A DNA stretch of 62,894 bases, filler included. It is 9 parts of 9 records of this genome, joined end to end, with 100 filler letters (N's around TTAATTAATTAA, not from the genome) between each part and the next. Parts side by side here need not be neighbours in the genome. Positions count along the whole stretch, not along the records: positions 27,784 to 35,108 come from SRR20825010_5683; 8 more parts are not named here. One strand, 5' to 3'. The first letter of the stretch is position 1, and each line of letters begins with the position of its first letter. Shown one piece after another: positions 2,658 to 55,407 of this stretch. The position numbers and the translations under genes are program-made. The notes beneath the pieces are model-generated. The model searched no databases and was not told the DNA's origin. It saw only the letters and a list, made by a program, of their open reading frames with translations.

Positions 2658-2670
2658 GTTCAAAACCCGG

Positions 2671-2816: not shown

Positions 2817-2817
2817 C

Positions 2818-5474: not shown

Positions 5475-6266
5475 TTAGTTTGCCTCCACCTTATCAATGG
5501 CGCCATTACGAGAAAAACTGGGCAGAGAGAAAACCGGTTTCCAGTGCATCCAGATCATGAACGCTTCCCCCACGACCAGCCCCTCAGGGACTATACCCCA
5601 GAATCGGCTATCATTACTGTTATCACGGTTGTCGCCCATCACAAAGTAGGCATCTTCCGGCACCGTCCATTCCCCCTGGGTGCGTGCCTGCGGCACCTGA
5701 CGCCCGGTATAGGGGTTGGTTTTGCCTTCCTGCCAAATCAGGTGAGTCGCGTCACCCAACTGCTCAACATATTGCTTGCGCCACACCCCCGGGCCAGCCC
5801 ATTCATTCACCAGATCCCGGTCAACGATCTTCCCGTTAACCGTCAGAACGTTATCCTTCACCTGAACCGTGTCACCGGGCAACCCCACCACACGCTTGAT
5901 GAAGTTCTGCTTCCGGTTTTCCGGGTACTTGAACACCATCACATCACCGCGTTCAGGCTCACCGGTTGCAATGATTTTGGTATTGGTTACGGGTAAACGC
6001 AGGCCATAGGCAAACTTGTTTACCAGAATAAAGTCATTCACCTTCAGCGTTGGCAGCATGGAGCCGGAGGGAATGGTAAACGGTTCAACAATAAATGAAC
6101 GAATCACCAGCACCACGAAGAACACTGAAATCAGCGAGTTGGAGGTTTCCACTACACTGGCCACCGGGCCGCCCTTGCTCTTCAATTTCAGAGCCTTGTC
6201 GATCAGCCAGACGACAACGGTAATCGCCAGCGCCAGGGTCAACCAGAAACCGATATCAATATCCAA
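5475..6266 (-). CDS. lepB: Signal peptidase I
   Basis: EPFTIPSGSMLPTL, FIKRVVGLPGD, GDNRDNSNDSRFWG. Confidence 0.96.
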   Translation of the reverse strand: MDIDIGFWLTLALAITVVVWLIDKALKLKSKGGPVASVVETSNSLISVFFVVLVIRSFIVEPFTIPSGSMLPTLKVNDFILVNKFAYGLRLPVTNTKIIATGEPERGDVMVFKYPENRKQNFIKRVVGLPGDTVQVKDNVLTVNGKIVDRDLVNEWAGPGVWRKQYVEQLGDATHLIWQEGKTNPYTGRQVPQARTQGEWTVPEDAYFVMGDNRDNSNDSRFWGIVPEGLVVGEAFMIWMHWKPVFSLPSFSRNGAIDKVEAN

Positions 6267-27638: not shown

Positions 27639-27783
27639 GCGCGTCGTGTGCGCCTGGCCGGGTCGGTCCCAGAGGGTCCGTTGNNNNNNNNNNNNNNNNN
27701 NNNNNNNNNNNNNNNNNNNNNNNNNNNTTAATTAATTAANNNNNNNNNNNNNNNNNNNNNNNNNNNNNNNNNNNNNNNNNNNN

Positions 27784-30700
27784 GTACGTAACGGTAAATC
27801 TGTACGTATACCTGGATAGAACACACCTTTCCTGGTAGGGTGCATGTTATACGTTACACGCCATGCATAAACTGAAATTAGTAAAGTGCTTACATAATAC
27901 ACTGTTTATGCTGAGTAGTATTACCCATGTCTATACCTGTAACCCCCACGTGTACATGGCGTGTTGTAAACACACAAAAAAAAAGTTATAGTTTATTACG
28001 ATTGTTTTGTTTGTGTAACATACTATGTGTGAGGGGTCATTCCCAGGAAAGGTGTGTTGCGTATGACGTCTATAAAAAGTATAAAACTTAAGTATACGTG
28101 CATACACCTTTCCTATATTAATATGTAGTATACTACGTAACACAAAAAATCAAAAAACGATATTACGTAATCAACAGGACGTCGCTACGGGGATATCCAC
28201 CTACTATTTTTTGTACGAGCTGAGCATAGTTGCTCGGGGAGGATATGACATGCAGGTTTACACCTTTCCAGGTAATGTACATATATATACAATACTTACA
28301 ATTCTCAAAAAAGTGAAATTCCACAGGTTAGCAGATGCTGTACCGTGTCGTAACGTATTGACTTATATGTTGTAACAGTATAAGGCGCAAAAGTTTACAG
28401 TTTAAACTACTTATATGTACCGTAACAATACTCTTTACCTGTTACGTGTGTTTCCACATGCTTGCCGTACATACAGGTTATGTATGTATTGTGGGATTGA
28501 TTGATGTTTGAAATCAATATAGTACAATGTCTTACAGGAAAGGTGTATCCGCGGGGGTGTATGTTGACATCAAACGTAATAAAAACGCAGTGGCGTTGTA
28601 CATAACTGTACAAGTGTATACTACGTAATGCGGCATACAAGTTATAACCCTGTTAAACAGCATGCACAATATAAATACATAATGTGCCACCTGTGTGTAC
28701 GTAAGTATTACTCCTATGACACTACATACATAGAAGTAAGTGTAGTTGCTGTCACATATATTTGAAATTTTTTTTGTATGTTTTGTTATAAATCTTTTAC
28801 TATCCGTTTTACAGGAAAGGTGTACACAGTTCTGTGTTGTTATACTTGCTGTACACGTTATGCATTAATACCATGGTTGAAGTGTCATCCTACATCACAT
28901 AACCAAAACACAGTAAACAACACATGAACATACTTAGTATTCGTCTTGTGTACTGTTACTGTTTTTGTTTGGTGTTGTTCATGTAATTACTGGATGATGT
29001 CTACACGGAAAGGTGTAGTTTACATTACACGTGTATAGTATGTTAAGCGCTGTTATCCGGGTGAGATACTTTCGGCCATACGGTCGACCTCTACTGTGGA
29101 GATGCTATACTACTGATACACCAGTACCAGGTACGCTCCGTATGCGGTACATGTAAACACGCGTATACCTACAGACGTGTACAGGGAAAGTACCTACCCG
29201 TAGCAATCGTGTGTTTAGTTACGAAATTTATGTTGTATTATTGCATATCATATCCGGATAGATTATCTCAGGAAAGGTGTAACCCCAATGGAACGCGGGG
29301 AATAACCTCCCTAAAAAAGAGAGAGCGTGCAATACGTACTACGGTATATGTTGTATGCGGTATCCGCAAGTATTACGTACGCCGTGTGTGTGTATATATG
29401 TACATGTACACCTTTCCGATAAGTATACAATGTTAATCATACTACAACAAATTTCAACAAACACGCAGTGCCAGTATACATGGTATACATAACAGACCCC
29501 GTGGTGATAATAATCAGGGATGTTCTATAATACACGACAAATAATAGACTTACATTTTACGTAACATACAGTGTATTATAACCATACTATGTAAGTTCGT
29601 CTTCCCGGGAAACAACGACCACCGTATGCATACGTGTGTGTAAACGTGTACCACGCAAAAGAATCAACTATGTATTGCATATTTTATGTTGTACGGTAAA
29701 CGACTAATCTAATTATTGTATGCACCTTTCCATTGCTGGCGTAACATGGATGTACGTACGTCAACACCCACACGAAACCTACAGTACATGGAAGTGTACA
29801 CGGTATCGTACATACAACCCTATTGTTGTATGGTATTGTACTGTCCTTCAAAAAAAAATGTAATGTATCTGAAAAAATCTACGCGGACAAATGTAATCAT
29901 ACGTAACGTACACCTTTCCTGGGGGAACGGATTCACGATGAATTACAAAAAACAAAAAATGTAAACGCACGTAATAACCCTCTATGCTTTTTTACGCATA
30001 TACGTGGTGATGGTAAGGTTAAATTTATTAAATACGGAAATACATGTAATACCGTAGTGTGTGTAATGCACGCGTACCGCACACGTCCGTAATGCAACAC
30101 ACACTTTTCGTGTAGTGTTTATTATTGTTTACATGCATCCCGTATTACGCATAAACAAAATTATCCCCATATTTTTTATTTTTTGTGTGTTTGGTGTAAC
30201 GTACACTATCCGTACAATTATCCGGAAAGGTGCATTAATATGTATTATACATACATTATGTTATAAGTTCGCGTACTTGTAATTCATACTTGCTATGTGT
30301 TGAACCCCGTTGATGTCACGGAGTGTAAACCATCCCCGCGCACGATGCAAATTTGAGCAATAACAACTTACTATACGTAGGTGCACACCTTTCCTACGTG
30401 TACATGCACGTAAGCTCTACAAAAAAACAACACCAACTACGTCTTTTTATAAATGTTGAGTCTTATCGGTACCGTGCGTAGTATAGCCTTGGTTTAACTA
30501 CGTATTAACTTAATCGATATAACACGAGCATACATTACCGGTGCACATCATCCAGTTTGAGTGTATTGCTTTTGTTTACTATTTTTTGTGCACACTGCGT
30601 ATTACATAGGAAAGGTGTATTGTGGCTGTTACGCGTAATGATACTACTTGCACTTACACTGTTGTATTAATACGACAATACGTACGCCGTAGTATTACCA

Positions 30701-33700
30701 GGGCCATGTGTGTGTAGGAAACGTTACATGCATTGTAAGTTTGGCTTTGTATTTATTGATTACAGTAACGTTGACCGGGACGCACTTACCTGGAAAGGTG
30801 TACGCAGATATTCCCATAGAAGTACGTCCTATAAGTTAAGTAACATACGCAGGGTATAGGGCATTAAATACTCTGTAAAATTATAAATGGTTACATAAAC
30901 GCGGTACGATATACCGTGCTGACTATCGCGTGACCAGCATATGTAATAGCATATTATACTTTTTCTTTTTTTTTGTTTGTTACAAATAATGGTGTCGTTG
31001 CAATTGTCGGAAAGGTGTAATGTCTGTAACGTGTATTGGTATGTTTTACTGTTGCTTGCGCATCTCGCGTAATAGTATCTGAGTCTTTACACGTACATCA
31101 GTAGGTCTTAACGCTCATAATAGACACTACGTGGTATGAGTTGGGTATATATCCCGGGTGTAAATATATTATTTCCGTATACTTATATACATTAAATCAT
31201 TTGGGTTTATATATATATACGTATACACATCATACGTGTACACACCTTTCCAACTTATATACATATACCGTATCCCGTAAAACAAACATAAACAACGTAA
31301 ATTTATATTGAGTACACACACCGTTTTTGTAGTGTTATGGGATTCCATAAATGCATACGTATACCCACACAAAAAATATAAAAAGTAGGGGTCCCATTTG
31401 GTGCAGACACAGTGTGGTGTAAACGTGTGCATTTTTCATAGTATGGGTATTCCGTTTCCGTTGCCACACCATTAATATATTGTATGTAGTGTAACACCTT
31501 TCCGGTAGTTTACAGTTATTAATGTTATCAAAAACATAAAAACATTGGAACAACACGTTATTAACTGTGTATAGCGTAAAATGTTATACACGTTGTTTGT
31601 GATATGGGTGATGCGTTACAAACGTACATATACGTAGATAAACTGTATGCACTAAACTCGTAGTAACAACGGAATACGCATTGATACTGAAAGCTGATAT
31701 GTGTAGTTCCTTTTTTCATAGAGTATACACTATGTAGATATACTACGCGTGTTACGTAGGATTACGTTAATTCTTCCATACCAGTAACTGCATATTGGGG
31801 TGGTATTTTAGTTTGGGATGTACAGTAATGTACAACGCACTACTTACTTAGGAAAGGTGTGGCGTGCATGCTGCATGCTATGTAGTTTTGTTATCATTTT
31901 GTTTTGTTGTGTCCGTTATTGTATATACCGACTTTATAGGAAAGGTGTAATTTATATTGTACGTACCAAGGCTACCACAACTCCGTGACTACGTGTAATA
32001 CACCCGGTAAAATATAACCTCTACACACAGGTACTGCGTAAAACAAGTCCCTGGGTATATATTAACACGGTACTTTACGCTACGTGTGTGGTGAAGATGT
32101 ACATCTGTTTGTTATTAACTTTTCGTGTTTTGTTGCTTTTATGTATATACTATAATGTCTGCAAACCGTAAGGAAAGGTGTCGTGCTACACCGGGGTTAC
32201 TGGACATGACCTTATTCTACTTATACACGTACAAGATACGATCACTGTATGCACCGTCTCAAAAAAAAACGGGATGTACGACTACCACGCATATGCGTGT
32301 ACACGATATGTGTGTGTACCACTGTACATGCCGCCAGGTATATATATATATACGAGCTTACGCTGATATTATTGTTGGATACGTGTATCGTATGCAGTAC
32401 ATAACGGAACTTATTTTTTTTAGAAAGACATACCGACAAGCAATGTACGCGATGTAGCTGACATAGCATGTACTACGTCCCCGAAGTGTTACCCTACTTG
32501 GTTTGTTGTTGCTTGTTATTTGTTTATGGCTTACATCACGTATAGGGAAAGGTGTTATGGATGTAAATCCATTTACAGGATAACATATTTATGTTATGCG
32601 TGGGTACACCTTTCCTGAGGAAATACACACCATCAAATAAACGTAGCAATCACACAAAAAGACGAGCGTATGTACACACCATGTTGAACGTATGTCACGT
32701 GGATAAGTATATATCACACGCAACTAATTCAGGGAACATACTACGTATAACGAAGTTTATTAATTGTTACTATTGACAACCGTGTACACACCTTTCCGTA
32801 TGTAAGATCACAATGCATTACAGGGCAACAACAAAACAAAACTAGTTCACATAGTATGTTGCGTTATTATCCGTGTGTAACAAAAACCGGGTACAATGAA
32901 AGTACACACACATGCAGTTTCCTCCATTTTGCAGATGTGGGTATGCGTTGCCTGTATACGCGTATTCCGGAAAGGTGTACACGTATACTAGTTCCACGTA
33001 TCACCGCCGTACAACGTGCACACCTTTCCAGAGCAGAGTTACATCCACCACGATATATGTATCCTTCAAAAAAACAAGATACATCCTCGTATGTGTGTAT
33101 AGTCACTGTGTATTGTGTGCTTGCCTGTTACGTGTATAGTGGTATGTTAGCTATTGCATAACCCGGGCATTACTGTGGGAATAATATAACACCCTACACA
33201 TTTTGGTGTTGGTATATGTAACTGTTGTCATATACGTAATTGTGGTGTATACTATTCTACCACACAGGGTTGTATACATATGAACACCTTTCCATACCAG
33301 TCATACATGTACGTAGTAAGGGGTCTTCCACAACATAAATATTACACACCTGGTGGGAGGTATTATACGTTGTGTAAGTGCACATCCGTCTATAGTATTA
33401 CTACTGTAATAGCAGTTACACCTTTCCTGTACACGTGTATTACACTCATATCGGGTGCAACAAACAAAAAACATTTCACGCATAGTAGGTATATATCATA
33501 GCAATATGCTATACGTAGGACGTAATATGCTTAACCGTATGTTTTATTATTTGTGTACACGTTATGTATTTGTCATCTGTTACTACGGAAAGGTGTACAC
33601 GTTGTGGAAGCTATTACTTCACGATTACAATAAAATGACATACACTATACACGTAGGACACTGCATGCACCTTTCCTGGGTGTGGTATGTACGCCACGTG

Positions 33701-35108
33701 TAGACTACGCAAACATAAAGTTATGTATGATTACGTGTATGTTTATGTAAAGCATATAACGCTATAAAAAAATGTATATGTTTTTGTAGTAGCTAAATTT
33801 ACATACATTCCCATTACGTATTTAACATAACATTGCATGCGTGGTATACATAGTGCACAGCGTTCACACCTTTCCGGTATAAGCCTGTATATATGTATAG
33901 TCCAAAATCATGACAAACCACCTAGGCAAAGTTACGCACCCGGTACAATACAGGCGAACGTACTTTACATGTTATAACGTATACGTTTTGAAATGTCCCA
34001 TATCCTACGCGGGTTGGGTGGTTAGTGTATATTAGTGTACACTCCCCCCGGCCTATCGGCATCGTGGGATGTAATTATTCTACGCGGGATTATACACCTT
34101 TCCGGGTTTAACGTAATTCTAGTAAAATAGAACAACAAAAACAACAAACTACCCGCATGTACCTGTCTACATATTTTGTAAGGTACCGTTATACTTATCA
34201 CGATACTATACGGTTACAATAAATTTACGTAATACGTGTGCATATAAAATAAAAGATATTAAGCCACGTAATAACTATGTGTTAATGAGTACTATGTATG
34301 CACACGATACGTACATTCTGCATTATACAGAGTAAAACTACACCTTTCCTATATAACGCTATTATCAGCTGGGTTACGCAAAACATGGGATTACTAACGT
34401 AGCATACCTATATATCATGTGGAATGTGTAAATACTGCACACATTTAAAAGTCGTAGTTACTACGTTGGTTTACACGGAGTGTACTTCACACCTTTCCGA
34501 GAAGTGTTAAATAACGATATTAACTATCGCAAAACGAAAATTAAGCAAACTCATGTTATGCAAGTAATGTACTGGTTACGGGGTATATAGTACCCGTATC
34601 CTTCCATAAGACATAACACATACACGTAAATCATGTGTAACATGCACACCTTTCCGTATGGTTGAATACATTACCGTTGTTGCAAGACAACAACAACAAC
34701 ATAAAACTACGGGTATATCACACCCCTATGTAACATACATCCTAAGTTAAATATCATGTCTGTCGTGGGTAACACGCGGTATACATACAAGAACTACATC
34801 CGGGGCTTACATGTCATATAGAAATATATATTTTTTTTTATTTCTGTGTGTACTGCTACCATATGATATACCCTTACTGGAAAGGTGTTCGGGTTTAATC
34901 CCGGTGTAATATACGCATGACATTGTTATACGTAGTCCCCCTGGTAGTAACATGTGTACTGCTCGGAACGCAGTATAACAATGCGTGGTTACGTAAAATA
35001 TCGGGATTACGTGTAACGTGTAAAGTAATGTACGTAATATTGTATAATACAGTAAACACTTATATTACAACTCTTACGACGTAGTAGTGTACATAACCGT
35101 ACGTACAC
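27784..35108. repeat. Gene-less AT-rich contig with 36 dispersed directional units (RCACCTTTCC + about 25-35 nt + A/C-rich tract); putative small-RNA gene array
   Basis: RCACCTTTCC on + at 27823, 28104, 28260, 29408, 29722, 29910, 30385, 31242, 31494, 32606, 32788, 33020, 33284, 33418, 33667, 33866, 34094, 34340, 34489, 34646. GGAAAGGTGY at 28046, 28537, 28814, 29007, 29271, 30224, 30609, 30792, 31009, 31851, 31939, 32172, 32546, 32969, 33587, 34879. No ORF over 110 aa. Confidence refers to the repeat structure, not the function. Confidence 0.93.
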
Positions 35109-35209
35109 NNNNNNNNNNNNNNNNNNNNNNNNNNNNNNNNNNNNNNNNNNNNTTAATTAATTAANNNNNNNNNNNNNNNNNNNNNNNNNNNNNNNNNNNN
35201 NNNNNNNNG

Positions 35210-44091: not shown

Positions 44092-44790
44092 TATTTCGAC
44101 AGCGCGCTGGACGCCGACAGCATCCTGGAGTTCGGGTTTGAGAACATCTGTATCGCCACAGGCGCAAAGTGGCGGCGCGACGGGGTCGGCCGTCAGCATG
44201 TGGTGCCCTTCCCGATGGATGCAGCCACCCCGATCTACACACCCGACGACATCATGGACGGGCAACGCCCCTCTGGCCATGTGGTGATCTATGACGACGA
44301 TCACTACTACATGGGCGGCGTTCTGGCTGAACTGTTGCGGCAGGAGGGCTGTGAAGTCACCATCGTCACGCCCTCGGCCTATTTGTCCGACTGGACGGTT
44401 AACACGTTGGAACAGCACACGATCCACCGCCGGCTGGCCGAAATGGGGGTTGAGATCGTGTTGAACCGAGGCGTCACCGCCATCGGCAAGGGGCATGTCG
44501 TGACCAATTGCACCTACACGGATCGCCTGACAGAGATTGGCTGCGATGCGGTTGTCGTGGCCACCTCTAAGCTGGAAAACAACACACTTTATACCGACCT
44601 TTTGGCGCGGCAGGGTGATTGGGCCGACGCGGGCATCAAATCGGTCAAAATCATCGGCGACGCCGAGGCCCCCGGGCCCATCGCCTGGGCCACCTACGCA
44701 GGCCACCGCTATGCGCGTGAGTTGGACGGCGAAGACATCGGCGATGCGCTGCCCTTCCGCCGCGAAATCACAGAGTTGGCGGCAGAATGA
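44092..44790 (+). CDS. Trimethylamine/histamine dehydrogenase-like flavoprotein, C-terminal part
   Basis: ATGAKWRRDG, VVIYDDDHYYMGGVLAE, IGDAEAPGPIAWATYAGHRYARE. Confidence 0.82.
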   Translation, partial: YFDSALDADSILEFGFENICIATGAKWRRDGVGRQHVVPFPMDAATPIYTPDDIMDGQRPSGHVVIYDDDHYYMGGVLAELLRQEGCEVTIVTPSAYLSDWTVNTLEQHTIHRRLAEMGVEIVLNRGVTAIGKGHVVTNCTYTDRLTEIGCDAVVVATSKLENNTLYTDLLARQGDWADAGIKSVKIIGDAEAPGPIAWATYAGHRYARELDGEDIGDALPFRREITELAAE

Positions 44791-46121
44791 AAGACCCGTT
44801 TCCCTTTGACCCCGCCGCGACGGATCAGATCCTTGAGTGGACCGCCCGTCGCATCGCCGACGGCCCTGACCCGAAACACGGCGCGCAGGCCTTTGCCGCG
44901 CTAGAGCCGATCCTTGGCGGGTCGATCACCGCAGACGGCATTGGGGGTGACGCCGCCTTTGGCCTGTTCACTGACACCATCGTGCCCTCGACCCGGCCTT
45001 TCGGGCATCCCACCAGCCTGTCCTTTGTCGCATCCGCCCCCAGCCGCGCGGCGCTGAGTTTCGACGCGGCCCTTGGCGCGGCAGGCATCTTTGCGGGCAA
45101 TTGGGACGGCGGCGCGGGCGCGATCCATGCGGAAAATCAGGCGCTGCGCTGGATTGCCGATCTTGCCAGCTGGGGGGACAGCGCGGGCGGCGTGTTTGTG
45201 GCGGGCGGCACCTTGGGCAACCTGTCGGCCCTGCACGCGGCACGCGAATGGCATCGCCGCACCCACGGACGCCGCGACCGCCGCGCCATCCTCTGTTCGT
45301 CCGAGGCGCACAGTTCCATCGCCGCCGTCGCGCGGATCATGGATGTTGAGGTGATCCTTGTGCCTGCGGATGCCTCGGGGCGCATGTCCGGGGAAGCAGC
45401 AAAGGCCCACTTGGAGGACCACCTCTTTGCCATCGTCGCCAACGGCGGCGCAACCAATTGCGGCGCGGTCGATGACATCGCCGGTCTGGCGGATTTGGCG
45501 CAGGCGCATGGGCTCTGGCTACATGTCGACGGGGCCTATGGTGGCGCGGCGCTGGCCGATCCGGTCATGCGGCCCGCGTTCGACGGCATAGAGAAGGCCG
45601 ACAGTCTGATCGTCGATCCGCACAAGTGGCTGTTTGCGCCCTATGACAGCTGCGCGCTGATCTATCGCGATGCCGGTCACGGCGCGGCGGCGCATGGGCA
45701 GCAGGCGGTCTATCTGGACACCGTGGACAAGACCCATTGGAACCCCTCCGACTACGCCCTGCACCTGACCCGCCGGGCGCGCGGCCTGCCGTTGTGGTAT
45801 GCGCTGGCTACACATGGCACCCGCGCCTTCACGCAAGCTATCGCCGCCACGCGTGAGGTGGCAGAGGAGATTGCACAGGGGATCGCGGCCACCCAAGGGC
45901 TGGACCTGCTTCTTGGCCCACAACTGACGGTAATCCTGTTCCGCCCCAAGGACATGTCCGAGGACGCCATGATAACATGGGCCGAGGGGCATCGCCGGTC
46001 CGGTGCGCTGCTGTGCCTGCCGACACGCTGGCGCGGCGAGATGGTGTTTCGCCTGTGTATCGTGAACCCGCAGACCGACCCCGATGCCGTGTTGGAAACG
46101 CTGAAAACACTGGTGCCATGA
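44787..46121 (+). CDS. Group II PLP-dependent decarboxylase
   Basis: GGTLGNL, HVDGAYGG, VDPHKWLF. Confidence 0.92.
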   Translation: MKDPFPFDPAATDQILEWTARRIADGPDPKHGAQAFAALEPILGGSITADGIGGDAAFGLFTDTIVPSTRPFGHPTSLSFVASAPSRAALSFDAALGAAGIFAGNWDGGAGAIHAENQALRWIADLASWGDSAGGVFVAGGTLGNLSALHAAREWHRRTHGRRDRRAILCSSEAHSSIAAVARIMDVEVILVPADASGRMSGEAAKAHLEDHLFAIVANGGATNCGAVDDIAGLADLAQAHGLWLHVDGAYGGAALADPVMRPAFDGIEKADSLIVDPHKWLFAPYDSCALIYRDAGHGAAAHGQQAVYLDTVDKTHWNPSDYALHLTRRARGLPLWYALATHGTRAFTQAIAATREVAEEIAQGIAATQGLDLLLGPQLTVILFRPKDMSEDAMITWAEGHRRSGALLCLPTRWRGEMVFRLCIVNPQTDPDAVLETLKTLVP

Positions 46122-47248
46122 CGACAAGCCTTGAGATCCTCGACCGACTTGTCGGGTTCGACACGGTCAGCGCCCGGTCGAACCTGCCGCTGATCACCTA
46201 TGTCGAGGACTTCCTGAAAACCCGCGGCTTTGCCGTCACACGCGTCCCCGACCCGGTCGAGGGCAAGGCCGGGTTGTTCGCCAGTATCGGACCGACGGGC
46301 GCAGGCATCCTGCTGTCAGCCCATACAGATGTGGTCCCGGTCGAGGGCCAGACCTGGACCCGCGACCCGTTCCGCCTGACCGTCGAAGGCGACCGCCTGT
46401 ACGGACGCGGCACCACTGACATGAAGGGATTTCTGGCCGCAATGCTGGCCTGCGCCGACAAGGCGTCAAAACGCACGCTGCGCGAACCCCTGAAACTGGC
46501 GATCTCATACGATGAAGAAATCGGCTGTGTCGGTATCGCGCGGATGATCGATGCTTTGCCCCCCGCCATCGGCCTGCCCCGCGCGTGTATTGTGGGAGAG
46601 CCGACCTCGATGCAGGTCGCCGTGGGTCACAAGGGCAAAAGCGCGATCCGCGCCATCTGTCACGGCGAGGCCGGGCATTCCGCGCTTGCGCCACGGTTCA
46701 CCAACGCGCTGCACCTTGCCGCGGATCTGGTGGCCGGGTTGCGGGCGCTGCAAGACGATCTGGCAACGCATGGCGCACAGGACGACAGCTATGCGATCCC
46801 CTATAGCACCGTGCATGTGGGCAAACTGTCAGGCGGCACCGCGCTGAACATCGTCCCCGACCGGGCCGAGCTGTTGTTTGAGTTCCGCCACCTTGCCGCC
46901 GACGCCCCAGACAGCCTGATGGCGCGCATCCGCGCCCTTGCCGACGACATCGCCACCACCCACGGCGCGGCGATTACGCTGGAGCAGGTCACCGCCTACC
47001 CCGGTCTGGACACCCCCGCCGACGCCGAGGTCACGCGCCTTGTCCAGCGCCTTGCCCGCAAGCAGACGCTGACCAAGGTCGCCTTTGGAACAGAGGCCGG
47101 TTTCTTTGACGCCCTTGGCATCCCCACCGTTGTCTGCGGGCCCGGCGACATGGAGGCGCAGGGCCACAAACCGGACGAATACCTGCTGCATTCGCAGCTG
47201 GACGCCTGCGACTCGATGCTCGACTCGGTGCTCGACCATCTCGGCTGA
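46118..47248 (+). CDS. argE: Acetylornithine deacetylase family (M20)
   Basis: SAHTDVVP, GRGTTDMKG, DEEIGC, GEPT, HKPDEY. Confidence 0.88.
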   Translation: MTTSLEILDRLVGFDTVSARSNLPLITYVEDFLKTRGFAVTRVPDPVEGKAGLFASIGPTGAGILLSAHTDVVPVEGQTWTRDPFRLTVEGDRLYGRGTTDMKGFLAAMLACADKASKRTLREPLKLAISYDEEIGCVGIARMIDALPPAIGLPRACIVGEPTSMQVAVGHKGKSAIRAICHGEAGHSALAPRFTNALHLAADLVAGLRALQDDLATHGAQDDSYAIPYSTVHVGKLSGGTALNIVPDRAELLFEFRHLAADAPDSLMARIRALADDIATTHGAAITLEQVTAYPGLDTPADAEVTRLVQRLARKQTLTKVAFGTEAGFFDALGIPTVVCGPGDMEAQGHKPDEYLLHSQLDACDSMLDSVLDHLG

Positions 47249-47448
47249 CCTTGCGAGGAATCTCAATGTCGCTCAAAAATTATGCGTCTGCGGCACCTTT
47301 TTGTGCAACCATTCGGGCGGCGGTAGGAAAACCCGTTTTTCGGCGCGTCTTAGGCTAAGGCTAATGACCGCTGAGGCAGTCGTTGCTTCTGACCTTCGGA
47401 CGGCCTTTCTATGCTCCTGCCAGCAATCGGACCAAAGGCGGGGCGCGC

Positions 47449-48069
47449 GTGGCAACAGAAACATCCAATGCGATCGACGTGCAAAACGCGGTCAAACGGT
47501 ACGGCGATTTCACCGCTCTCAAACGCGTGTCGTTATCGATCCGGGACAATGAGTTCTTTACTCTGCTTGGCCCCTCTGGATGTGGCAAGACCACGCTCTT
47601 GCGGATGATCGCCGGGTTTGAGGACGTGACCGAGGGCGCGATCCACCTGTTCGGCGACGACATCGTAACCCTGCCGCCGCACAAGCGCCCGATCAACACG
47701 GTGTTCCAGAACTACGCCCTGTTTCCGCATATGACCGTGCTGGACAACGTCGGTTTCGGCCTTGAAATGCTGGGCAGTACCAAGTCAGAGGCCCGCGCCC
47801 GAGCAGGCGAAGTGTTGGAAATGGTGCAGCTGTCGCAATTCGCGGCGCGCAAGCCATCGCAACTGTCCGGTGGTCAGCAACAACGTGTGGCCCTCGCCCG
47901 CGCGCTGGCCCCGCGTCCCAAGGTGCTGCTGCTGGACGAACCGCTGAGCGCGCTGGACCTCAAGCTGCGCAAGGCGATGCAGATCGAACTGAAGCACCTT
48001 CAACGCGACACCGGCATCACCTTTATCTTTGTCACCCATGATCAGGAAGAGGCGCTGACCATGTCCGAC
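47449..48069 (+). CDS. Polyamine-type ABC transporter ATP-binding subunit (3'-truncated)
   Basis: [27 protein letters not shown]. Confidence 0.92.
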
Positions 48070-48169
48070 NNNNNNNNNNNNNNNNNNNNNNNNNNNNNNN
48101 NNNNNNNNNNNNNTTAATTAATTAANNNNNNNNNNNNNNNNNNNNNNNNNNNNNNNNNNNNNNNNNNNN

Positions 48170-48857
48170 GATGCATATCAATCTGCATAAAACCTTTTCG
48201 ACCCCGCATGGCGGTGGTGGACCGGGTTCCGGGCCGGTTGTGTTTTCAGATGCATTGGCACCCTATGCGCCGATCCCTTATGTCGTTCGCAATGAAAATG
48301 GCTTCCATCTGGTCGAAACCGCAGATGAAAAAGATGGCAAAAAGCCATTTGGTCGTCTGAAAGGGTTCCATGGTCAAATGGGCATGTTCGTTCGTGCGCT
48401 GACCTATATGAAAAGCCACGGTGCGGACGGTTTGCGTCAGGCATCCGGGGATGCGGTTCTGAATGCCAATTATCTGCTGGCACGTCTGAAGGACAAACTG
48501 AGCGTCGCCTTCCCGGGATATTGCATGCATGAAGCCCTGTTTGACGACAGCTTCCTGAAAGATACCGACGTCTCGACACTGGACTTTGCAAAGGCAATCA
48601 TCGACGAAGGGTTCCACCCGATGACGATGTATTTCCCGCTGGTCGTTCACGGCGCACTTTTGATCGAGCCGACCGAGACCGAAACCAAGGAATCGATCGA
48701 TCAGTTTTGCGATGCGATCCTGTCGCTTGTCGCCAAGGCCGAGTCGGGTGATGCGGAGTTCTTTAAGAATGCGCCTTATCTGACACCGCGTCGTCGACTG
48801 GATGAGACAGCGGCTGCACGGAAGCCTGTGTTGCGCTGGAAACCGGAAACGGCTTGA
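48170..48857 (+). CDS. gcvPB: Glycine dehydrogenase subunit 2 (5'-truncated)
   Basis: HINLHKTFSTPHGGGGPG, IEPTETE, RRLDET. Confidence 0.95.
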
Positions 48858-48881
48858 TAAGCAACGCACCTTGCGATTTCA

Positions 48882-48916
48882 GAACACCCCGGCCCTGTGT
48901 CGGGGTGTTCTTTTTC
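48882..48916 (+). terminator. Rho-independent terminator
   Basis: GAACACCCCGGC-CCTGT-GTCGGGGTGTTC then TTTTT. Confidence 0.8.
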
Positions 48917-49060
48917 AATGACTTGCACTTGAAACCCATTGGACTTGTTGCAATCTGAACCCTTATACTTGTCTGAAGTACTAATGAACGGCATCAGTAA
49001 ATGGTGTGTTTGGGGATTATGTGTTCGGGCATTGCCCGTTCCGGAGGTTTGAAGTCAGTC

Positions 49061-49975
49061 ATGTCTCGTCGCGTGCAAAAAGTATTCACTGCCGAACGTC
49101 GATTAAAAGAACGGACAGGTGGGGTTGTTGAAGATTGGTCGGACTCCTTTTTTGATCCGACGCTTGAGGCCGGACTTGGTGCCGGTGAGGCGATGACGCC
49201 TTCACTGCCATCATCAAATGCATCTGAAGGCGGCTCTGACCTGACACAAGCTGTCCTCGATGAAATCCGTGCGCTGCGTGGCGAAGTTTCGCAATTGCGT
49301 TCTGCTGTGGCATCTGGTGGCACCGTAAGTGCCGATGTTGCTGCACCTCTTGCGTCAAATGACCCGCCGCTTGATGTGTTGCCTGAACCTGTTTCGAGCA
49401 ATTTCACACATAGCAATCGCCCCGGGGCAGCTGAACCGGATCGGGATGATCTGGAATTGATTCGCACCCAGATTGCCGAAATGAACGAGCATATCCACAA
49501 GGCCAAGGTCCAGATTGCATCACTTCGTCATCCCAAGGCGTCCGATGATCGGATCGTCAGTGCGACGTCGGAGTTGGATGCGATTGTCAAAGATACAGAG
49601 ATGGCAACACACACCATTCTGGAATCGGCTGAACAGATTGATGATCTGGCGATGACGTTGAAAAACTCTGCACCAAGTGAATTTGTTGCAGATCACGTCG
49701 AACAGATCGCCTTTATCGTTACAAAGATTTTTGAATCCTGCAATTTTCAGGACATCACAGGTCAGCGTATCAACAAGGTGGTTCGGACACTGGAATTCGT
49801 TGAAGAACGTGTCCACAATATGATCTCGATCTGGGGCGAAGAGGCCTTTGCCGATCTTCCGGTTCCGGAAAGCGATGCCAAAGAAAGCGAGCCTGATGAT
49901 TCCGATCTTTTGAACGGTCCTCAGCTTCAGGGCGAGGGGATTAGTCAGGACGATATCGATAAATTGTTCGATTAA
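49061..49975 (+). CDS. cheZ: Chemotaxis phosphatase CheZ, alphaproteobacterial type
   Basis: ELDAIV..TE.AT..IL, FQDITGQRI, LLNGPQ, SQDDIDKLFD. Confidence 0.88.
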   Translation: MSRRVQKVFTAERRLKERTGGVVEDWSDSFFDPTLEAGLGAGEAMTPSLPSSNASEGGSDLTQAVLDEIRALRGEVSQLRSAVASGGTVSADVAAPLASNDPPLDVLPEPVSSNFTHSNRPGAAEPDRDDLELIRTQIAEMNEHIHKAKVQIASLRHPKASDDRIVSATSELDAIVKDTEMATHTILESAEQIDDLAMTLKNSAPSEFVADHVEQIAFIVTKIFESCNFQDITGQRINKVVRTLEFVEERVHNMISIWGEEAFADLPVPESDAKESEPDDSDLLNGPQLQGEGISQDDIDKLFD

Positions 49976-50184
49976 CGGTGAAAAATCTTGGGTTTCTGCC
50001 TATATTTAGGGAGTGACCGTACCCAACCCTTTCAAAGAAAAAGGGTGAAGGTGTCCAAGCAGGGCCTTTCGTCAACTAAACGTTTACAAATGTTGGGGTA
50101 GGTTCATACCTATAAGAATAAGAAGCGATGTTGGGATGCGTGTGATATTCGGTTGCACGCGTTTTAGCGTGCTTGGAGGATACT

Positions 50185-50589
50185 ATGGGATTTTGGTCTC
50201 TTGGTGCTATTCGCCAGCCTAAGGCGCAGGATATTAAGTGGCGGAAGAGCCCGCGTGGTGACTACTATCGCCTCTTCATGATCGATGACATTTCAGAGCT
50301 TAAACTGAATGGCGTTGGTGGTGTGTATTTGCTGTGGCATGGCGGGATAAAGCCATCTTGGCTCGTCGCAGGCGCGACAGAGGATCTTGGGCACAGTTTT
50401 TCGGAACTGATGCGCGATCCCGATATTCGCGAATATGACGGCCGCGGCGGTGTTTACATGAGCTGGTCGCCGATCAAAGGCAGCTTCCGGGAAGGGGTTG
50501 TGCATTTCATCGCAAAGCACACCAACCCGACCTTTGAGTGTGACTATGACAGCAAATCAGACCCGATACCGGTTCTGTTGCCGCGATAA
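50185..50589 (+). CDS. Hypothetical protein, possible degenerate GIY-YIG fold
   Basis: RBS GGAGG; GGVYLLW...LVAGATEDL. Confidence 0.6.
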   Translation: MGFWSLGAIRQPKAQDIKWRKSPRGDYYRLFMIDDISELKLNGVGGVYLLWHGGIKPSWLVAGATEDLGHSFSELMRDPDIREYDGRGGVYMSWSPIKGSFREGVVHFIAKHTNPTFECDYDSKSDPIPVLLPR

Positions 50590-50619
50590 CCACGCAACGT
50601 CGTCTTGGCTTCAGATATA

Positions 50620-50651
50620 ATAAAGCTCCGCAGTTACCTGCGGAGCTTTAT
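50620..50651. terminator. Bidirectional terminator
   Basis: ATAAAGCTCCGCAG-TTAC-CTGCGGAGCTTTAT between convergent genes. Confidence 0.8.
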
Positions 50652-50676
50652 GTGCTTTTACCTGCAAAAATTCAGC

Positions 50677-51156
50677 TTAGAGCTTCGCAAGTACGGCTTC
50701 GGCACTTGATACGTCAAATGCGCCCGGCTCTTCGACAGCAAGATGGGTGACTTTGCCGTTATCGACGATCATGGCAAAGCGGTTGGCACGCTTGCCAAGG
50801 CCACGGCCGGTCAGATCAAGTTCAAGACCGGTTGCATCGACGAATGCCAGATCACCGTCAGACAACATGGTGATGTCGGTGGCTTTTTCGCTGGTGGCCC
50901 ACGCCTGCATGACGAATGCATCGTTCGATGCAAGGCATGCGATTTCATCGACACCCTTTGCTTTGATCTCGTCGGATTTGGCGACGAATCCCGGAAGGTG
51001 CTTGGCCGAGCAGGTCGGGGTGAAAGCGCCAGGAACAGCAAACAGAACGATTTTGCGGCCTGCGAAGAATTCTTTGGAGTTTACGGCTTCCGGGCCATCG
51101 CTTGTGGCGCGGAAAAGAGTGACGTCCGGGAGTTCATTGCCGACTGAAATGGTCAT
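50677..51156 (-). CDS. Peroxiredoxin (Prx5 type)
   Basis: VPGAFTPTCS, NDAFVM. Confidence 0.95.
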   Translation of the reverse strand: MTISVGNELPDVTLFRATSDGPEAVNSKEFFAGRKIVLFAVPGAFTPTCSAKHLPGFVAKSDEIKAKGVDEIACLASNDAFVMQAWATSEKATDITMLSDGDLAFVDATGLELDLTGRGLGKRANRFAMIVDNGKVTHLAVEEPGAFDVSSAEAVLAKL

Positions 51157-51357
51157 GGGTATCTCCGTATGGGGTGCGCAATCCCGTTGATTGCGCGATG
51201 GATCGTATGGTTGGGAATCAAACTACAAATTCGTTGGATATTCAATGCCATCCAGCGGTGTTTTTCGTAAGTTTCATCAGGAAGACTTTTCAGCGATCTT
51301 TGAGTGATGCCTGAAACGCCTGCTGCACTTTCTCTACGGGCGATCTTTGAGGTGTGA

Positions 51358-51869
51358 TCATTGTGCGTTTTTCGCAAGGTCACTGCTGGTATTAGCATCG
51401 CGCAAAGCCGTCAAAACAGCATCGGTGCTGAGCAATTCCGATAGTAAAATTCCGTCAGGCGCATTGGGACCAAAGACCGCATTAAACGGAATGCCAAAAC
51501 GCCCATAAGATGCCAGATAATCAGAAATCTGTTGGTTCGGGCGGGTCCAGTCGGCCTGCATCAGAACGATGTTGTCGCTTTGAAGCGCATCGGAAACCTC
51601 GGCTGTTTCAAGCACCAGCTTTTTATTGACCTGACAGGTCACACACCATTCGGCGGTGACGTCGACCAGAACCGTTTTCCCATCCGCAACAAGGCTGCCA
51701 ATGGTTTCAGGTGCGAAGCTTTGCCATTGAAGCGGACCTGTTTTGGTGTTGCCAGCCATCGGTGCAATAGGTTGGGAAAAGCCCGGTGCAAACAGGGCGA
51801 CAAGGAAGCCCAAAACAGCAAATGCGGTAAAGGCAAATCGCGGACGTAAGGATGACGTGCGTTTACGTG
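51358..51869 (-). CDS. DsbD-family protein, C-terminal thioredoxin domain (5'-truncated)
   Basis: DVTAEWCVTCQVN, ADWT, GIPFN. Confidence 0.88.
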
Positions 51870-51969
51870 NNNNNNNNNNNNNNNNNNNNNNNNNNNNNNN
51901 NNNNNNNNNNNNNTTAATTAATTAANNNNNNNNNNNNNNNNNNNNNNNNNNNNNNNNNNNNNNNNNNNN

Positions 51970-52190
51970 ACGCCATACTTGGATGAGTTCACAACCTGTA
52001 GAATTTTCGCTGCCAGCGCGGGATCATGCTCGATACATCGAACAATATCATCGATACGGCTTTCCGGATCTCGAGTCAGTTGCAGAATCTGTTGTGCAAC
52101 TTTCGGGGCCGAGTGTAAGCGATCTAAACGTTGGACAAATTGATCTGCCAGATCAACAGGGTCTGCACAATTATCAACTAACATGACCAT
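51970..52190 (-). CDS. HDOD-domain protein (3'-truncated)
   Basis: IEHDPALAAKILQVVNS. Confidence 0.85.
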
Positions 52191-52418
52191 CCTTCTTTTT
52201 GTAGTTTTCTGCGTTGCAATTTAGCCCGTTTGGGGATTCTCTTCTCTCGAAATCTATCTTTGAGAGAACGCAGACACGGTCAATAATTGAGATCCGAAAA
52301 CCAGTTTATTGATTCTCGGATGCGACTGTTCCAGAAATAACGGTCGGAACTGTTGTAGTACCAGCCGGCTCTCGATTCTGAGAATGGTTTCCCTCCTCAG
52401 AACTTTCCCTGTTTGGAC

Positions 52419-53300
52419 TTACGTCAACAGTTTGAGTCCCGATTCCTGGATCTCATAGGGCACCAGCGATTCATCGACGGCACTGCCACGATGTTTGGCG
52501 ACATGCAGTGCCCGGCTCATCCGGTTCCCTTCTTTGATTTTGCCCATCAGAATGATGGTATTCGCATTGGAAAGAACATCCCCACTCTCAATGGGACGTT
52601 GAATCAGATCATCCAGCATCACTTCATACGTCGTCAGCAGCAGCAGACACCCGATCTGCTGAAAATCATAACGATGCTGCTCAACTTCGGCCTGATGACT
52701 GCGGAACTGTGCCCGGAACAGGTCCCGGGCGACCCAGTCGTATTCTTTTCGGAGGATCTGGTGGTAGACGTATTCAAACGCATGAAACTGAAACGAATCA
52801 CTGGGACGATCTGTCGGCTCGATACCATCGATCACCGTCCGCCGGACGCCATGCACAAAGTTGGAATAAAAAAAGGCAATCGCGGCATCCAGTTTCTTGA
52901 CGAATTCCAGTTTCCACTCTTTCCATTCATCCAGTTCCATATCGCGGCGCGTCACCCGGCGACCACTCTGGCGAAACAGATGCTGGTAATCGGTTCGCGT
53001 ACCAACATCCCAGATCTGGTCCAGGTCAAAGGGGGCATCGACCAGCTGTTCGCGCAGCTTCCACTGAAAAAGGCGCTCGGCGTAATCACTGTGGCTCTGC
53101 GAATCGCCGCGGGTTGCCATATCAAACAGCACCCCGGTCTGCCCTTCCTGCTGCAGGCCGGCCTCTGCGAACTGCAGACCAAGCTGCGTTTTGCCAATCC
53201 CGGTCGCGCCCAGAACGACGGTCAGTTTGCCTGGCATTAACCCGCCCGAGAGCAGTTCATCGAGTTCCGGAATTCCTGTTTTTTGTCGCAAGTCAGCCAT
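52419..53300 (-). CDS. KaiC/RAD55-like RecA-superfamily ATPase
   Basis: [43 protein letters not shown]. Confidence 0.88.
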
Positions 53301-53379
53301 GATGAATCTTCATTTCGCAGAGAGAACCTCCGCGCCTTTGTGGTTTACGGTTTGTGCCAGCTGCCGAGTTGACCGGAGA

Positions 53380-54495
53380 TCAGACGGTAATATAGCGGTC
53401 GCGTGCAGCCACATTCCAGTGGTCGACCACTTTTCCGCCACTCACGACCGTCACGGATTTATGCAGAGCCGACGTCGGACAGACATGCCGGGGAATTGCC
53501 AGCAGCTCATCGCCGGGCTGAAATTCCCCTGCCCGCGCACTGATGACGACCAGATGTTCTTCATTCTGCAACACCGGTTTCGCATCAGGCAGATCGGGGA
53601 ACCGGCAGCGATTTTCCATCGCAGGATCAGAGGCAATCGCTTTATAACCCAGATCAAAGGTGATGCGCTGCGAATCAGGGCGACTGATCACGCGCGTTAA
53701 TACCAGCGCTGCGGGAGTGAATTTCAGGTCGGGAAACAGTTCTCCGTAGCCGACATCATGCAGCACGCAGGTTCCCGGACAGACTTCGATATCCGGATCG
53801 TCAATGCCGGCAAAGATGGGGAACGAACCGGTCGCACCTGCGACAATCCGCGGGACCGGGAGTCCTTCAGTGACCAGTTGATCCCGCAGGCGACTCACGT
53901 TGTTCCAGACCTCTTTGACCGCGATCTCCCGTTCATGGATATCTACCTGATGATTCTGCCCATCGTAGGCATGCAGACCCGCGGCGATTAAACCAGGCGT
54001 GTTGGCGATCATCTGGTACAGTTCGACGGCGTTCTCCCCTGGAGGAAGGCCGGTGCGATTCTGTCCGGTATTCAGATCGAGCAGGACTTCGATTTCGAGC
54101 CCTGCAGCGGACATGGCTTCGCCCAGCAGTTCAATCGGGCCGGGATGATCGGCGGTCACCTGCAGTGACACATCGGGCCAGCGTTTACGGAATTCAACAG
54201 CACGGGCGATATTGGGACCGACCAGGTTATAAGCCAGGCAGATATCTTTGACCCCCGTATCCGCCAGCATTTCGGCCTCTGCAAATGTCGCCGCCTTATG
54301 CTTCAGGATTCCCAGTGAAAGTTCCAGCTGGATGATCTCGCGCATCTTATGTGTTTTACAATGCGGGCGCAGTCGGGAAGGGTCGCCGACCAGCTCAATC
54401 ATTTTTCGTATGTTGTCCTCAAGCAGATCCTTGAAGATAATCATTCCCGGAGAAATGATCTGGCTTGTATCGTCTATCTGATAGCATGCATCCAT
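53380..54495 (-). CDS. D-threonine aldolase/D-serine dehydratase-like PLP enzyme
   Basis: RPHCKTHK, HAYDG, EEH, PRHVCPT. Confidence 0.88.
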   Translation of the reverse strand: MDACYQIDDTSQIISPGMIIFKDLLEDNIRKMIELVGDPSRLRPHCKTHKMREIIQLELSLGILKHKAATFAEAEMLADTGVKDICLAYNLVGPNIARAVEFRKRWPDVSLQVTADHPGPIELLGEAMSAAGLEIEVLLDLNTGQNRTGLPPGENAVELYQMIANTPGLIAAGLHAYDGQNHQVDIHEREIAVKEVWNNVSRLRDQLVTEGLPVPRIVAGATGSFPIFAGIDDPDIEVCPGTCVLHDVGYGELFPDLKFTPAALVLTRVISRPDSQRITFDLGYKAIASDPAMENRCRFPDLPDAKPVLQNEEHLVVISARAGEFQPGDELLAIPRHVCPTSALHKSVTVVSGGKVVDHWNVAARDRYITV

Positions 54496-54522
54496 GAGCA
54501 GACCTGATCGCAGTTTGAAAAA

Positions 54523-55362
54523 TTAAATACCCTGAAAGAAGACTTTTTCCGCCGTCTTTTCCAGAACCCATTCTTTATCCATCTTAGAGAGGAATGGCAG
54601 GCCATTCTTGACCAGACCGATTGACGCCTGATACGAATGATCGCCTTGAACCTGGTACGGACAGTCGGTAGCCCACATCAGACGATTGGCTCCGAAAGCC
54701 TGATAGACTTTATTGATCAGCGGCAGCAGATCGTGATACGGCATCTGTTTTTTGCCCAGCGCGTAAAAGGCGGAGACTTTGACATACACATTGGGATGTT
54801 TCGCCATCTTGCAGAGCATGTCGACTTCTTTGGGATCGATTTCCCCCGTCACGCCAATGCGGGCCAGATGGTCGATGACCACAGTCGTATCGCGATGTTT
54901 CTGGCACATCTTATCCAGGGCAGGCAGACCGACGGCATCCATCAGGCAGCACATGGCCATCCCTTCTTTGGCACCGGTGGTCCACATTTCTTCCATGCAG
55001 TCCCCGTCCAGCCATTCGTCAACTTTTTTCGAGAGAGGACGAATGCGAAAGCCACGCACGCCTTTCTTTTTCAGCGCCAGCATTTCCGGCGTGGGGTTCT
55101 TTCCATTCTGATCAATCACTGCCACGCCCGAGAACATGCCCGGGTACTTTGCCATGCAGTCCAGCATGTAGCTGTTATCGAAGCCATAAAATGACATCTG
55201 AATCAGTACGACCCGATTCACGCCGACCGGCATCATTTCAGCCTGCAGCTCTTCAGCGGTAAAGCTGGGAGGTACCATATCAGAAACCTGAAAACCTGGT
55301 GCCAGTGGATATTTTTTGACATCCGGAGTCCAGACATGCGAGTGTGCGTCGATATATTCCAT
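54523..55362 (-). CDS. Amidohydrolase 2 family protein
   Basis: IDAHSHVW, VIDHLA, RLMWATDCP. Confidence 0.9.
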   Translation of the reverse strand: MEYIDAHSHVWTPDVKKYPLAPGFQVSDMVPPSFTAEELQAEMMPVGVNRVVLIQMSFYGFDNSYMLDCMAKYPGMFSGVAVIDQNGKNPTPEMLALKKKGVRGFRIRPLSKKVDEWLDGDCMEEMWTTGAKEGMAMCCLMDAVGLPALDKMCQKHRDTTVVIDHLARIGVTGEIDPKEVDMLCKMAKHPNVYVKVSAFYALGKKQMPYHDLLPLINKVYQAFGANRLMWATDCPYQVQGDHSYQASIGLVKNGLPFLSKMDKEWVLEKTAEKVFFQGI

Positions 55363-55407
55363 AGCAGAAGCCTCTGATAAAAAAGGTCAGTGGAAAAACA
55401 GCCCGAA

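Follow-up and report, generated by a model that had tools for sequence, protein, structure and literature searches.

The DNA stretch under study, hereafter the window, comprises 62,894 nucleotides (nt) and consists of nine contigs joined by linkers of the form N44-TTAATTAATTAA-N44 at positions 17902, 21688, 27684, 35109, 43992, 48070, 51870 and 56718. All copies of the 10-nt motif RCACCTTTCC in the window, 36 exact ones as an earlier note on this DNA had claimed, are located between 27823 and 34888 on a single contig at 27784–35108 (33 ACACC... and 3 GCACC...; 20 on the plus strand and 16 on the minus strand). The number expected by chance is 0.22, and 36 copies were reached in 0 of 100 shuffles. 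Each motif forms a unit together with a spacer and a unit-specific, mostly A/C-rich tract on its 3′ side, referred to below as the cargo. The contig, its linkers and its units are listed here, where n/17 represents the number of A and C residues in a 17-nt window and the homologue is the relative on a TARA scaffold described later.

27684–27783: contig-joining linker (N44, TTAATTAATTAA, N44)
27784–35108: separate non-coding contig, 7,325 bp, 37.6% G+C; internal fragment, the full molecule being 13.2 kb or longer
27823–27885, + strand: unit, motif 27823–27832, cargo window 27861–27882, weak, A+C 12/17
27993–28055, − strand: unit, motif 28046–28055, cargo 27996–28017, 15/17
28104–28166, + strand: unit, motif 28104–28113, cargo 28142–28163, 16/17
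28260–28322, + strand: unit, motif 28260–28269, cargo 28298–28319, weak, 12/17
28484–28546, − strand: unit, motif 28537–28546, cargo 28487–28508, 14/17
28761–28823, − strand: unit, motif 28814–28823, cargo 28764–28785, 16/17
28954–29016, − strand: unit, motif 29007–29016, cargo 28957–28978, 17/17
29218–29280, − strand: unit, motif 29271–29280, cargo 29221–29242, 13/17
29408–29470, + strand: unit, motif 29408–29417, cargo 29446–29467, 14/17
29722–29784, + strand: unit (GCACC variant), motif 29722–29731, cargo 29760–29781, 14/17
29910–29972, + strand: unit, motif 29910–29919, cargo 29948–29969, 14/17
30171–30233, − strand: unit (GCACC variant), motif 30224–30233, cargo 30174–30195, 17/17
30385–30447, + strand: unit, motif 30385–30394, cargo 30423–30444, 16/17
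30556–30618, − strand: unit, motif 30609–30618, cargo 30559–30580, 13/17
30739–30801, − strand: unit, motif 30792–30801, cargo 30742–30763, 12/17, best window 14
30956–31018, − strand: unit, motif 31009–31018, cargo 30959–30980, 16/17; cargo 26/26 identical in homologue
31242–31304, + strand: unit, motif 31242–31251, cargo 31280–31301, 16/17; cargo 23/26 in homologue
31494–31556, + strand: unit, motif 31494–31503, cargo 31532–31553; cargo 23/27 columns in homologue
31798–31860, − strand: unit, motif 31851–31860, cargo 31801–31822; cargo 21/28 columns in homologue
31886–31948, − strand: unit, motif 31939–31948, cargo 31889–31910; cargo 22/26 in homologue
32119–32181, − strand: unit, motif 32172–32181, cargo 32122–32143, 15/17; in stretch absent from homologue
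32493–32555, − strand: unit, motif 32546–32555, cargo 32496–32517, 16/17; least conserved cargo (16/26, 5 gaps)
32606–32668, + strand: unit, motif 32606–32615, cargo 32644–32665; cargo 21/26 in homologue
32788–32850, + strand: unit, motif 32788–32797, cargo 32826–32847, 17/17; cargo 21/27 columns in homologue
32916–32978, − strand: unit, motif 32969–32978, cargo 32919–32940, not A/C-rich (11/17); cargo 21/26 in homologue
33020–33082, + strand: unit, motif 33020–33029, cargo 33058–33079; cargo 24/26 in homologue
33284–33346, + strand: unit, motif 33284–33293, cargo 33322–33343, weak, 11/17
33418–33480, + strand: unit, motif 33418–33427, cargo 33456–33477, 15/17
33534–33596, − strand: unit, motif 33587–33596, cargo 33537–33558, 13/17, best window 15
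33667–33729, + strand: unit (GCACC variant), motif 33667–33676, cargo 33705–33726, weak, 12/17
33866–33928, + strand: unit, motif 33866–33875, cargo 33904–33925, 14/17
34094–34156, + strand: unit, motif 34094–34103, cargo 34132–34153, 17/17
34340–34402, + strand: unit, motif 34340–34349, cargo 34378–34399, weakest, 10/17
34489–34551, + strand: unit, motif 34489–34498, cargo 34527–34548, weak, 12/17
34646–34708, + strand: unit, motif 34646–34655, cargo 34684–34705, 16/17
34826–34888, − strand: unit, motif 34879–34888, cargo 34829–34850, 15/17
35109–35208: contig-joining linker

All units were oriented and aligned on the motif, with offsets (+n) counted from its first base. The A+C fraction at each position from +38 to +54, corresponding to 28–44 nt past the last base of the motif, was 0.75–0.97 against a background of 0.50. 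In this fixed 17-nt window the mean A+C was 14.08/17, compared with 8.50 ± 0.45 in 5,000 sets of 36 random anchors placed on either strand of the same contig; the maximum among the random sets was 10.14, and the observed value was reached by 0 of the 5,000. The mean number of G residues was 0.97, compared with 3.18 at random anchors. When the best 17-nt window was taken within +30 to +69, at least 14 A/C residues were found in 29 of the 36 units versus 14% of 20,000 random anchors, and seven units were weak with a best window of 13 or less (27823, 28260, 33284, 33667, 34340 and 34489 on the plus strand, and 32969 on the minus strand). The mirrored window upstream of the motif (−60 to −21) gave 10.8, the same as the background. 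The earlier note had described an architecture of motif, spacer of 25–35 nt and A/C-rich tract, had called the units at 27823 and 32969 weak, and had named this alignment against random anchors as its check, with a lack of A/C enrichment counting against it; the strong enrichment bears the description out, the enriched positions agree with the spacer length, both units are among the seven weak ones, and the example tracts were found in place. The contig does not have the organization of a CRISPR array, with direct repeats of ~25–40 nt in one orientation at regular spacing; the motif here has 10 nt, occurs in both orientations and has start-to-start distances of 51 to 374 nt.

Units of the same kind were found on marine contigs. 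A motif-pair scan of metagenome contigs gave at least 128 loci, and among the loci listed 36 were retained on requiring 2.5 or more motifs per kb and a G+C of 0.34–0.41. Most of the retained contigs are scaffolds (1.2 to 12 kb) from a single TARA sample, and a few derive from JGI marine samples; they bear 4–5 motifs per kb, with a tract that is likewise rich in A/C and poor in G. In 437 unique units pooled from the window and the marine contigs, base frequencies at +37 to +53 were 0.03–0.09 for G, 0.43–0.63 for A and 0.14–0.32 for C, and the profile was back to background by about +62. Weaker preferences were A at −2, T or C at −1, scarcity of C at +10 to +17 and purines at +11 to +13. Later counts use 385 units, in which those exclusive to L163, L118, L206, L196 and L212 were dropped as suspected (uninspected) tandem repeats. 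Identical tracts of 14–17 nt recur at the same offset on unrelated molecules, with unrelated flanks.

Conservation of the units could be evaluated because the segment 30821–33104 is colinear, in reversed orientation, with 2529–4899 of a 12,073-bp TARA scaffold at ~70–80% identity. Among the 11 window units in the aligned region, 10 have their motif kept by the homologue and the eleventh lies in an insertion present only in the window; the homologue in turn has one unit, at another place, that the window lacks, so that units are evidently gained and lost. In the ten unit pairs from this one homologous scaffold, the motif was identical at 98/100 positions without gap columns, the spacer (+10 to +36) at 162/278 (0.58, with 4% gap columns), the tract (+37 to +62) at 218/264 (0.83, 6%), the next 28 nt (+63 to +90) at 161/331 (0.49, 25%), and the upstream 40 nt at 212/424 (0.50, 19%). 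Each position from +40 to +56 was identical in 8–10 of the 10 pairs, and the spacer, whose 4% of gap columns compares with 19–31% in the flanks, kept its length but not its sequence. Conservation at the equivalent place extends to the tract of the minus-strand unit at 32969, even though this tract is not rich in A/C. Since unit-specific tracts including this one are conserved, the block carries information beyond composition. As judged from these pairs, selection is keeping the motif, its distance to the tract, and ~17–22 nt of sequence particular to each unit. The suggestion in the earlier note that an upstream element positions a variable cargo fits well with the length-kept spacer and the conserved unit-specific tract, while its option that the tract serves as a second binding site for one protein is disfavored, because each tract differs in sequence.

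The extent of a unit was also reflected in the spacing of 369 motifs on 16 contigs. Divergent neighbors come as close as 20 nt, same-strand motifs are mostly at least 72 nt apart, and convergent motifs leave gaps of at least 138 nt (median 236) with one exception at 39 and without any preferred distance; thus the footprint consists of the motif and ~70 nt on its 3′ side only. In the contig, the minus-strand unit at 31886–31948 is followed at only 78 nt by the next motif on that strand. On two marine contigs, L165 (~858–897) and L183 (~5641–5696), same-strand motif pairs are 30 and 46 nt apart, respectively, which leaves no room for the upstream copy's own cargo, and these upstream copies may be spare or decayed motifs.

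Regarding the type of molecule, a region of ~400 bp with GGGAAA..TTTCCC-type palindromes is common to the ends of three relatives at 76–86% identity, and pieces of it occur at the ends of five further relatives. The molecules therefore combine a constant region with a variable one, and the contig at 27784–35108 is an internal fragment that lacks the former. On the family member L171 (TARA scaffold 60334_2), positions 1–236 form a 79-bp tandem repeat (1–157 versus 80–236, 87% identity) that is unlike the constant region at its opposite end. The whole of 27784–35108 is contained in a 13,242-bp contig of run X1 (212 million letters) at a depth of 235, and other contigs of this run (3.9–11 kb, depth 280–1,494) match 27784–35108 over only 24–29 nt at motifs or at one cargo, a low-complexity tract. 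Small pieces of the identical sequence came up in runs from two further studies, and runs containing it are filed under at least three different organism labels. A sediment metagenome has a 95%-identical variant spanning nearly all of 27784–35108, with 271 transitions and 111 transversions. The molecule is natural, high-copy and recurrent. Run X4, guessed to be RNA, gave six small contigs (173–354 nt, depth 2–8) identical to parts of 27784–35108, and a contig of this run has a loose end at 34383 that we take to be a SMART-type cDNA adaptor. Since the genome at 34383–34389 reads the adaptor's own last 7 letters, this end is probably an artefact of strand invasion or mispriming and not an RNA 5′ end.

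The contig is very probably foreign to the bacterium of the surrounding contigs. Its G+C is 0.376 and that of the flanking contigs is ~0.6, i.e. 22 points higher; the earlier note had placed the array within the genome of the window and missed that it is a foreign contig between linkers. As the G+C of the nine contigs ranges from 0.37 to 0.69, the assembly may be a mixed bin instead of a single genome. Among the trinucleotides of 27784–35108, GTA, TAC, TAT, ATA, TGT and ACA appear at 2.5–3 times the even share and GCC, GGC, CTC, GAG, TCG, AGC, CGA and AGA at 0.17–0.34 times, a bias that amounts to purine-pyrimidine alternation, and ACGT/TACGTA is frequent.

No gene was recognized in the contig by any of the searches made. 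The longest open reading frame (ORF) has 136 codons with table 11 and 151 with TGA read through, and under alternative genetic codes long frames appear only if two stop codons are read through. The contig read in reverse was likewise without ORFs, so that a mirrored synthetic spike-in standard was rejected. A transfer RNA search found none, and no Rfam family matched at its gathering score; matches below threshold with E values up to 1, namely K_chan_RES (32 bits versus 51), mir-297 and DnaX, were taken as chance. The K_chan_RES match (potassium-channel RNA editing signal, E 0.0028) at 31815–31929 spans two adjacent minus-strand units. The nearest genome (G001) gave 0 matches to the contig, and blastn against 50,697 phage records gave none. 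Two motif-pair patterns in IMG/VR gave 5 and 0 loci with no array among them, and a two-motif pattern scan of one genome per species (185,579 prokaryote species) gave 100 loci, among which no like array turned up; both pattern scans used one gap window each and are accordingly limited in sensitivity. The multi-copy matches inspected in the prokaryote scan (10 of the 100 loci) were all ordinary tandem repeats. A giant-virus bin contig of IMG/VR (L002, 3001–3322) has seven copies of the 10-mer in a 52-bp tandem repeat that is unrelated to the family.

We consider the units likely to be small-RNA genes and, on balance, we favor reading the contig as an array of short guide-RNA (gRNA) minigenes on the kinetoplast-like DNA of a marine protist, mis-binned with a bacterium. 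Three features of gRNA-coding kinetoplast DNA (kDNA) are present: a conserved region combined with a variable region, a high copy number with no protein or rRNA genes found, and a conserved motif that stands at a fixed distance from every locus. Because gene-free, high-copy DNA with motif-marked short loci is what kDNA descriptions report, each unit is read as a gRNA minigene. The source would be a high-copy, non-coding extrachromosomal molecule in which ~400 bp are constant and a long region is variable, and it most likely belongs to the kinetoplast-type mitochondrial DNA of a marine kinetoplastid-like protist sequenced alongside bacteria. Independent minigenes would lie on either strand of the variable region at a density of ~5 per kb. 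In each of them, RCACCTTTCC may recruit or position the transcription machinery, the length of the ~28-nt spacer would matter and its sequence would not, and the unit-specific segment, with a conserved core at +40 to +56 (17 nt, perhaps up to ~22 nt) that is A/C-rich and nearly G-free, would be the working part of a short RNA. The RNA could start at the tract (~+36 to +40), with the motif acting as a −30-like element, or directly behind the motif, where purines are favored at +11 to +13, with a leader of ~28 nt. Such a segment would stay unstructured, since A and C do not pair, and would form Watson–Crick pairs with U/G-rich targets, as gRNAs do on U-insertion-edited mitochondrial mRNAs.

Several observations weigh against a kinetoplastid gRNA array. 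Complementarity is what defines a gRNA, and here only the composition, whose complement is U/G-rich, agrees. No kinetoplastid marker was seen. Conserved sequence block 3 (CSB3), a universal 12-mer at the origin of minicircles for which we used what we take to be its letters, is absent at up to 1 mismatch from 82,636 bases of family sequence in which the constant regions are only partly assembled; at 2 mismatches there are 16 scattered matches, none of them in the constant region. The Trypanoplasma borreli motif RYAGGCTTT is missing from the contig and occurs once in the rest of the window (1.69 expected), and RCACCTTTCC is absent from File S3 of the Perkinsela study (PMC4669381). The proportion of transitions among all substitutions between homologues is 0.44–0.57 in all regions, without excess in or behind the cargo; thus, there is no sign of G:U tolerance of the trypanosomatid type. 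Conservation does not extend past the cargo into the region expected to hold a long guiding part, and the guide would therefore be unusually short. In the sediment variant, 3 of 34 listed differences (27837–28516) fall in five cargo windows against ~5.5 expected from the length of these windows, a count that covers 34 of 382 differences and shows no clear depletion in cargos. Among the 385 units, a small sample probably from several species, no staggered overlaps of cargos, such as a guide cascade would leave, stood out against the reversed-sequence control; shared 11–13-mers equal that control, with a small excess solely for 13-mers at offsets 0–1, and a k-mer sharing test gave no signal over low-complexity controls. 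In view of these points, the array may well work like a kinetoplastid guide-gene array, with its membership in that class unproven.

The same small-RNA minigenes could serve another RNA-guided system or host than U-insertion/deletion editing, for instance a different RNA-processing step in the organelle of a non-kinetoplastid protist, or a selfish element; we regard this as a real but minor possibility. The architecture and the evidence for selection fit it equally well, CSB3 was not found, the T. borreli motif is absent, neither a wobble signature nor cascade overlap was detected, and the conserved part of ~17–22 nt is below the described gRNA lengths. It has to be set against the facts that high-copy, gene-free DNA with constant and variable regions and dozens of short RNA genes is known only in kinetoplastids, according to the available part of a review (PMC12936278), that edited mRNA rich in U/G, as exemplified by Perkinsela, is complementary to a composition rich in A/C and poor in G, and that in the accessible text on Perkinsela the gRNA candidates share a 5′ A/C-rich tract. 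It is doubtful that the molecules form a new class apart from kinetoplasts, in which high-copy, gene-free extrachromosomal DNA of marine origin would serve an undescribed RNA-guided process and would contain nothing but autonomous minigenes, in their hundreds, whose products are guide RNAs that are very short, unstructured and A/C-rich. That the units act as DNA, with a protein-binding motif (for replication priming, nicking, recombination or packaging) and a structural A/C tract, bent or easily melted, at a set distance, appears improbable. An invariant motif on both strands, the kept distance and A-runs that could bend DNA would suit such a role, and an RNA product of the units is deduced only; however, the tracts all differ and are still conserved position by position (8–10 of 10 at +40 to +56), and the non-A/C tract is conserved too, although a structural element would need composition only. 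In addition, the bias follows the strand of the motif, as the tracts avoid G but not C, and thereby indicates a single-stranded product.

The two remaining explanations place the array in other genomes. That the array belongs to the bacterium itself, natively or as a mobile part of its genome, or to a phage or plasmid of it, for instance as a small-RNA island or a defence array of unknown type, would account for deposition inside a bacterial assembly and for the presence of the array alongside bacterial data in X1–X3. We judge it very improbable, as the array lies on a separate contig of 22 points lower G+C with 0 matches in the nearest genome, no like array appeared in the prokaryote scan (one gap window), IMG/VR or the phage records, no ORFs are present, the depth is far beyond chromosome level for a run of 212 million letters, and the same sequence occurs under at least three organism labels. 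A nuclear cluster of small-RNA genes in a eukaryote, comparable to the 21U-RNA (Piwi-interacting RNA) loci of nematodes, shares the plan of a short core motif that precedes its unique ~21-nt sequence by ~40 nt, with units on either strand and several of them in each kb; it is nevertheless the most improbable explanation, given the depth of 235–1,494 in a small run, the contigs that end in a shared constant region with none exceeding ~13 kb, and a composition that is A/C-rich and not diverse.

If the gRNA array is real, it would be the densest guide-RNA coding DNA known, with ~5 genes per kb and 36–58 or more per molecule, and it would reveal a marine lineage with an undescribed kinetoplast genome. 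It would also give a clean handle on how guide genes are transcribed in mitochondrial RNA editing, an open question, since an invariant 10-nt element, a fixed distance and a guide restricted to Watson–Crick pairing, repeated hundreds of times, would make the rules for promoters and start sites testable. In terms of genome curation, it would be a case of a protist organelle contig binned into a bacterial assembly. If the molecules instead represent the class apart from kinetoplasts, such DNA would be widespread in the sea.

Outside the contig, a Pfam scan of 44092–62894 found ordinary bacterial genes. The last contig, 56818–62894, has a G+C of 0.39–0.45, unlike the contigs of ~60% G+C, and encodes a phosphatase/GDPD fusion, a Ca-dependent phosphatidylinositol-specific phospholipase C, a 597-amino-acid protein without a Pfam family and a glucuronyl esterase.

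In Caenorhabditis elegans, the 21U-RNA loci are thousands of autonomous minigenes on both strands, whose core motif precedes a small RNA unique to each locus by ~40 nt; they are nuclear and single-copy, have another motif, and give products that start with U and lack an A/C bias. They are thus like the array in layout and unlike it in motif, copy number and A/C bias. In diplonemid mitochondria, each circular chromosome carries a single gene-fragment cassette embedded in a long constant region shared by its whole class, an organization not seen here, where a contig has 36–58 units and nearly all of its sequence is contig-specific. Literature searches with the motif letters in either orientation returned, among the matches listed, primer-like sequences only, and the motif combined with 'kinetoplast' returned primers only. 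Searches on guide-gene organization in bodonids, prokinetoplastids and diplonemids brought up neither the motif nor molecules with ~5 guide units per kb, and the available portion of one preprint (10.64898/2026.09.29.755400) has nothing on molecule structure. For free-living prokinetoplastids, gRNA contigs of 0.6–2.2 kb with 1–3 guides are described in the accessible text (PMC7859406), a layout that differs from the array.

The kinetoplastid systems are closer. In general, gRNA-coding molecules combine a conserved region with a variable region, as summarized in the available part of a 2026 review (PMC12936278), and on the same source the minicircle cassettes of Trypanosoma brucei are alike in that each guide has its own unit with a short conserved repeat within such molecules. 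They differ in being bounded by 18-bp inverted repeats on 1-kb circles that hold 3–5 guides and CSB1–3, whereas the array has one motif per unit on much larger molecules with no CSB3 found; paired inverted repeats of the T. brucei type at a set distance were not observed here, as no motif has a fixed inverted partner. The T. brucei guide starts ~30 nt behind the upstream repeat. For Perkinsela, the accessible text (PMC4669381) describes gRNA candidates with an A- or A/C-rich 5′ tract and T/G-rich edited mRNA. The tract on the 5′ side and the massive, high-copy mitochondrial DNA are points of likeness; unlike the array, the candidates have no common flanking motif as far as the authors report there, and their A/C tract lies upstream of the complementary part, whereas here the tract itself is conserved (PMC4669381). 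A further likeness in layout is with T. borreli, whose gRNA molecules, in the portion of the report at hand (PMC9679448), each have ~23 gRNA loci on both strands without any placement pattern, a conserved 9-nt motif 20–40 bp upstream of each locus, gRNAs that form few G:U pairs and have a median length of 28 nt, and termini that are repetitive. DNA that is otherwise gene-free, short loci on both strands, an upstream motif at a set distance and shared termini are common to both. The differences are that the contigs here are 6–13 kb compared with ~70 kb, that the density is ~5 units per kb compared with ~23 per 70 kb in that description, and that the cargo has only ~17–22 nt conserved and is almost G-free, with no CSB3-like block found. 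Compared with the known forms, the array is new in that no CSB3 was found, in its different motif, in its very short G-free guides and in its far higher density.

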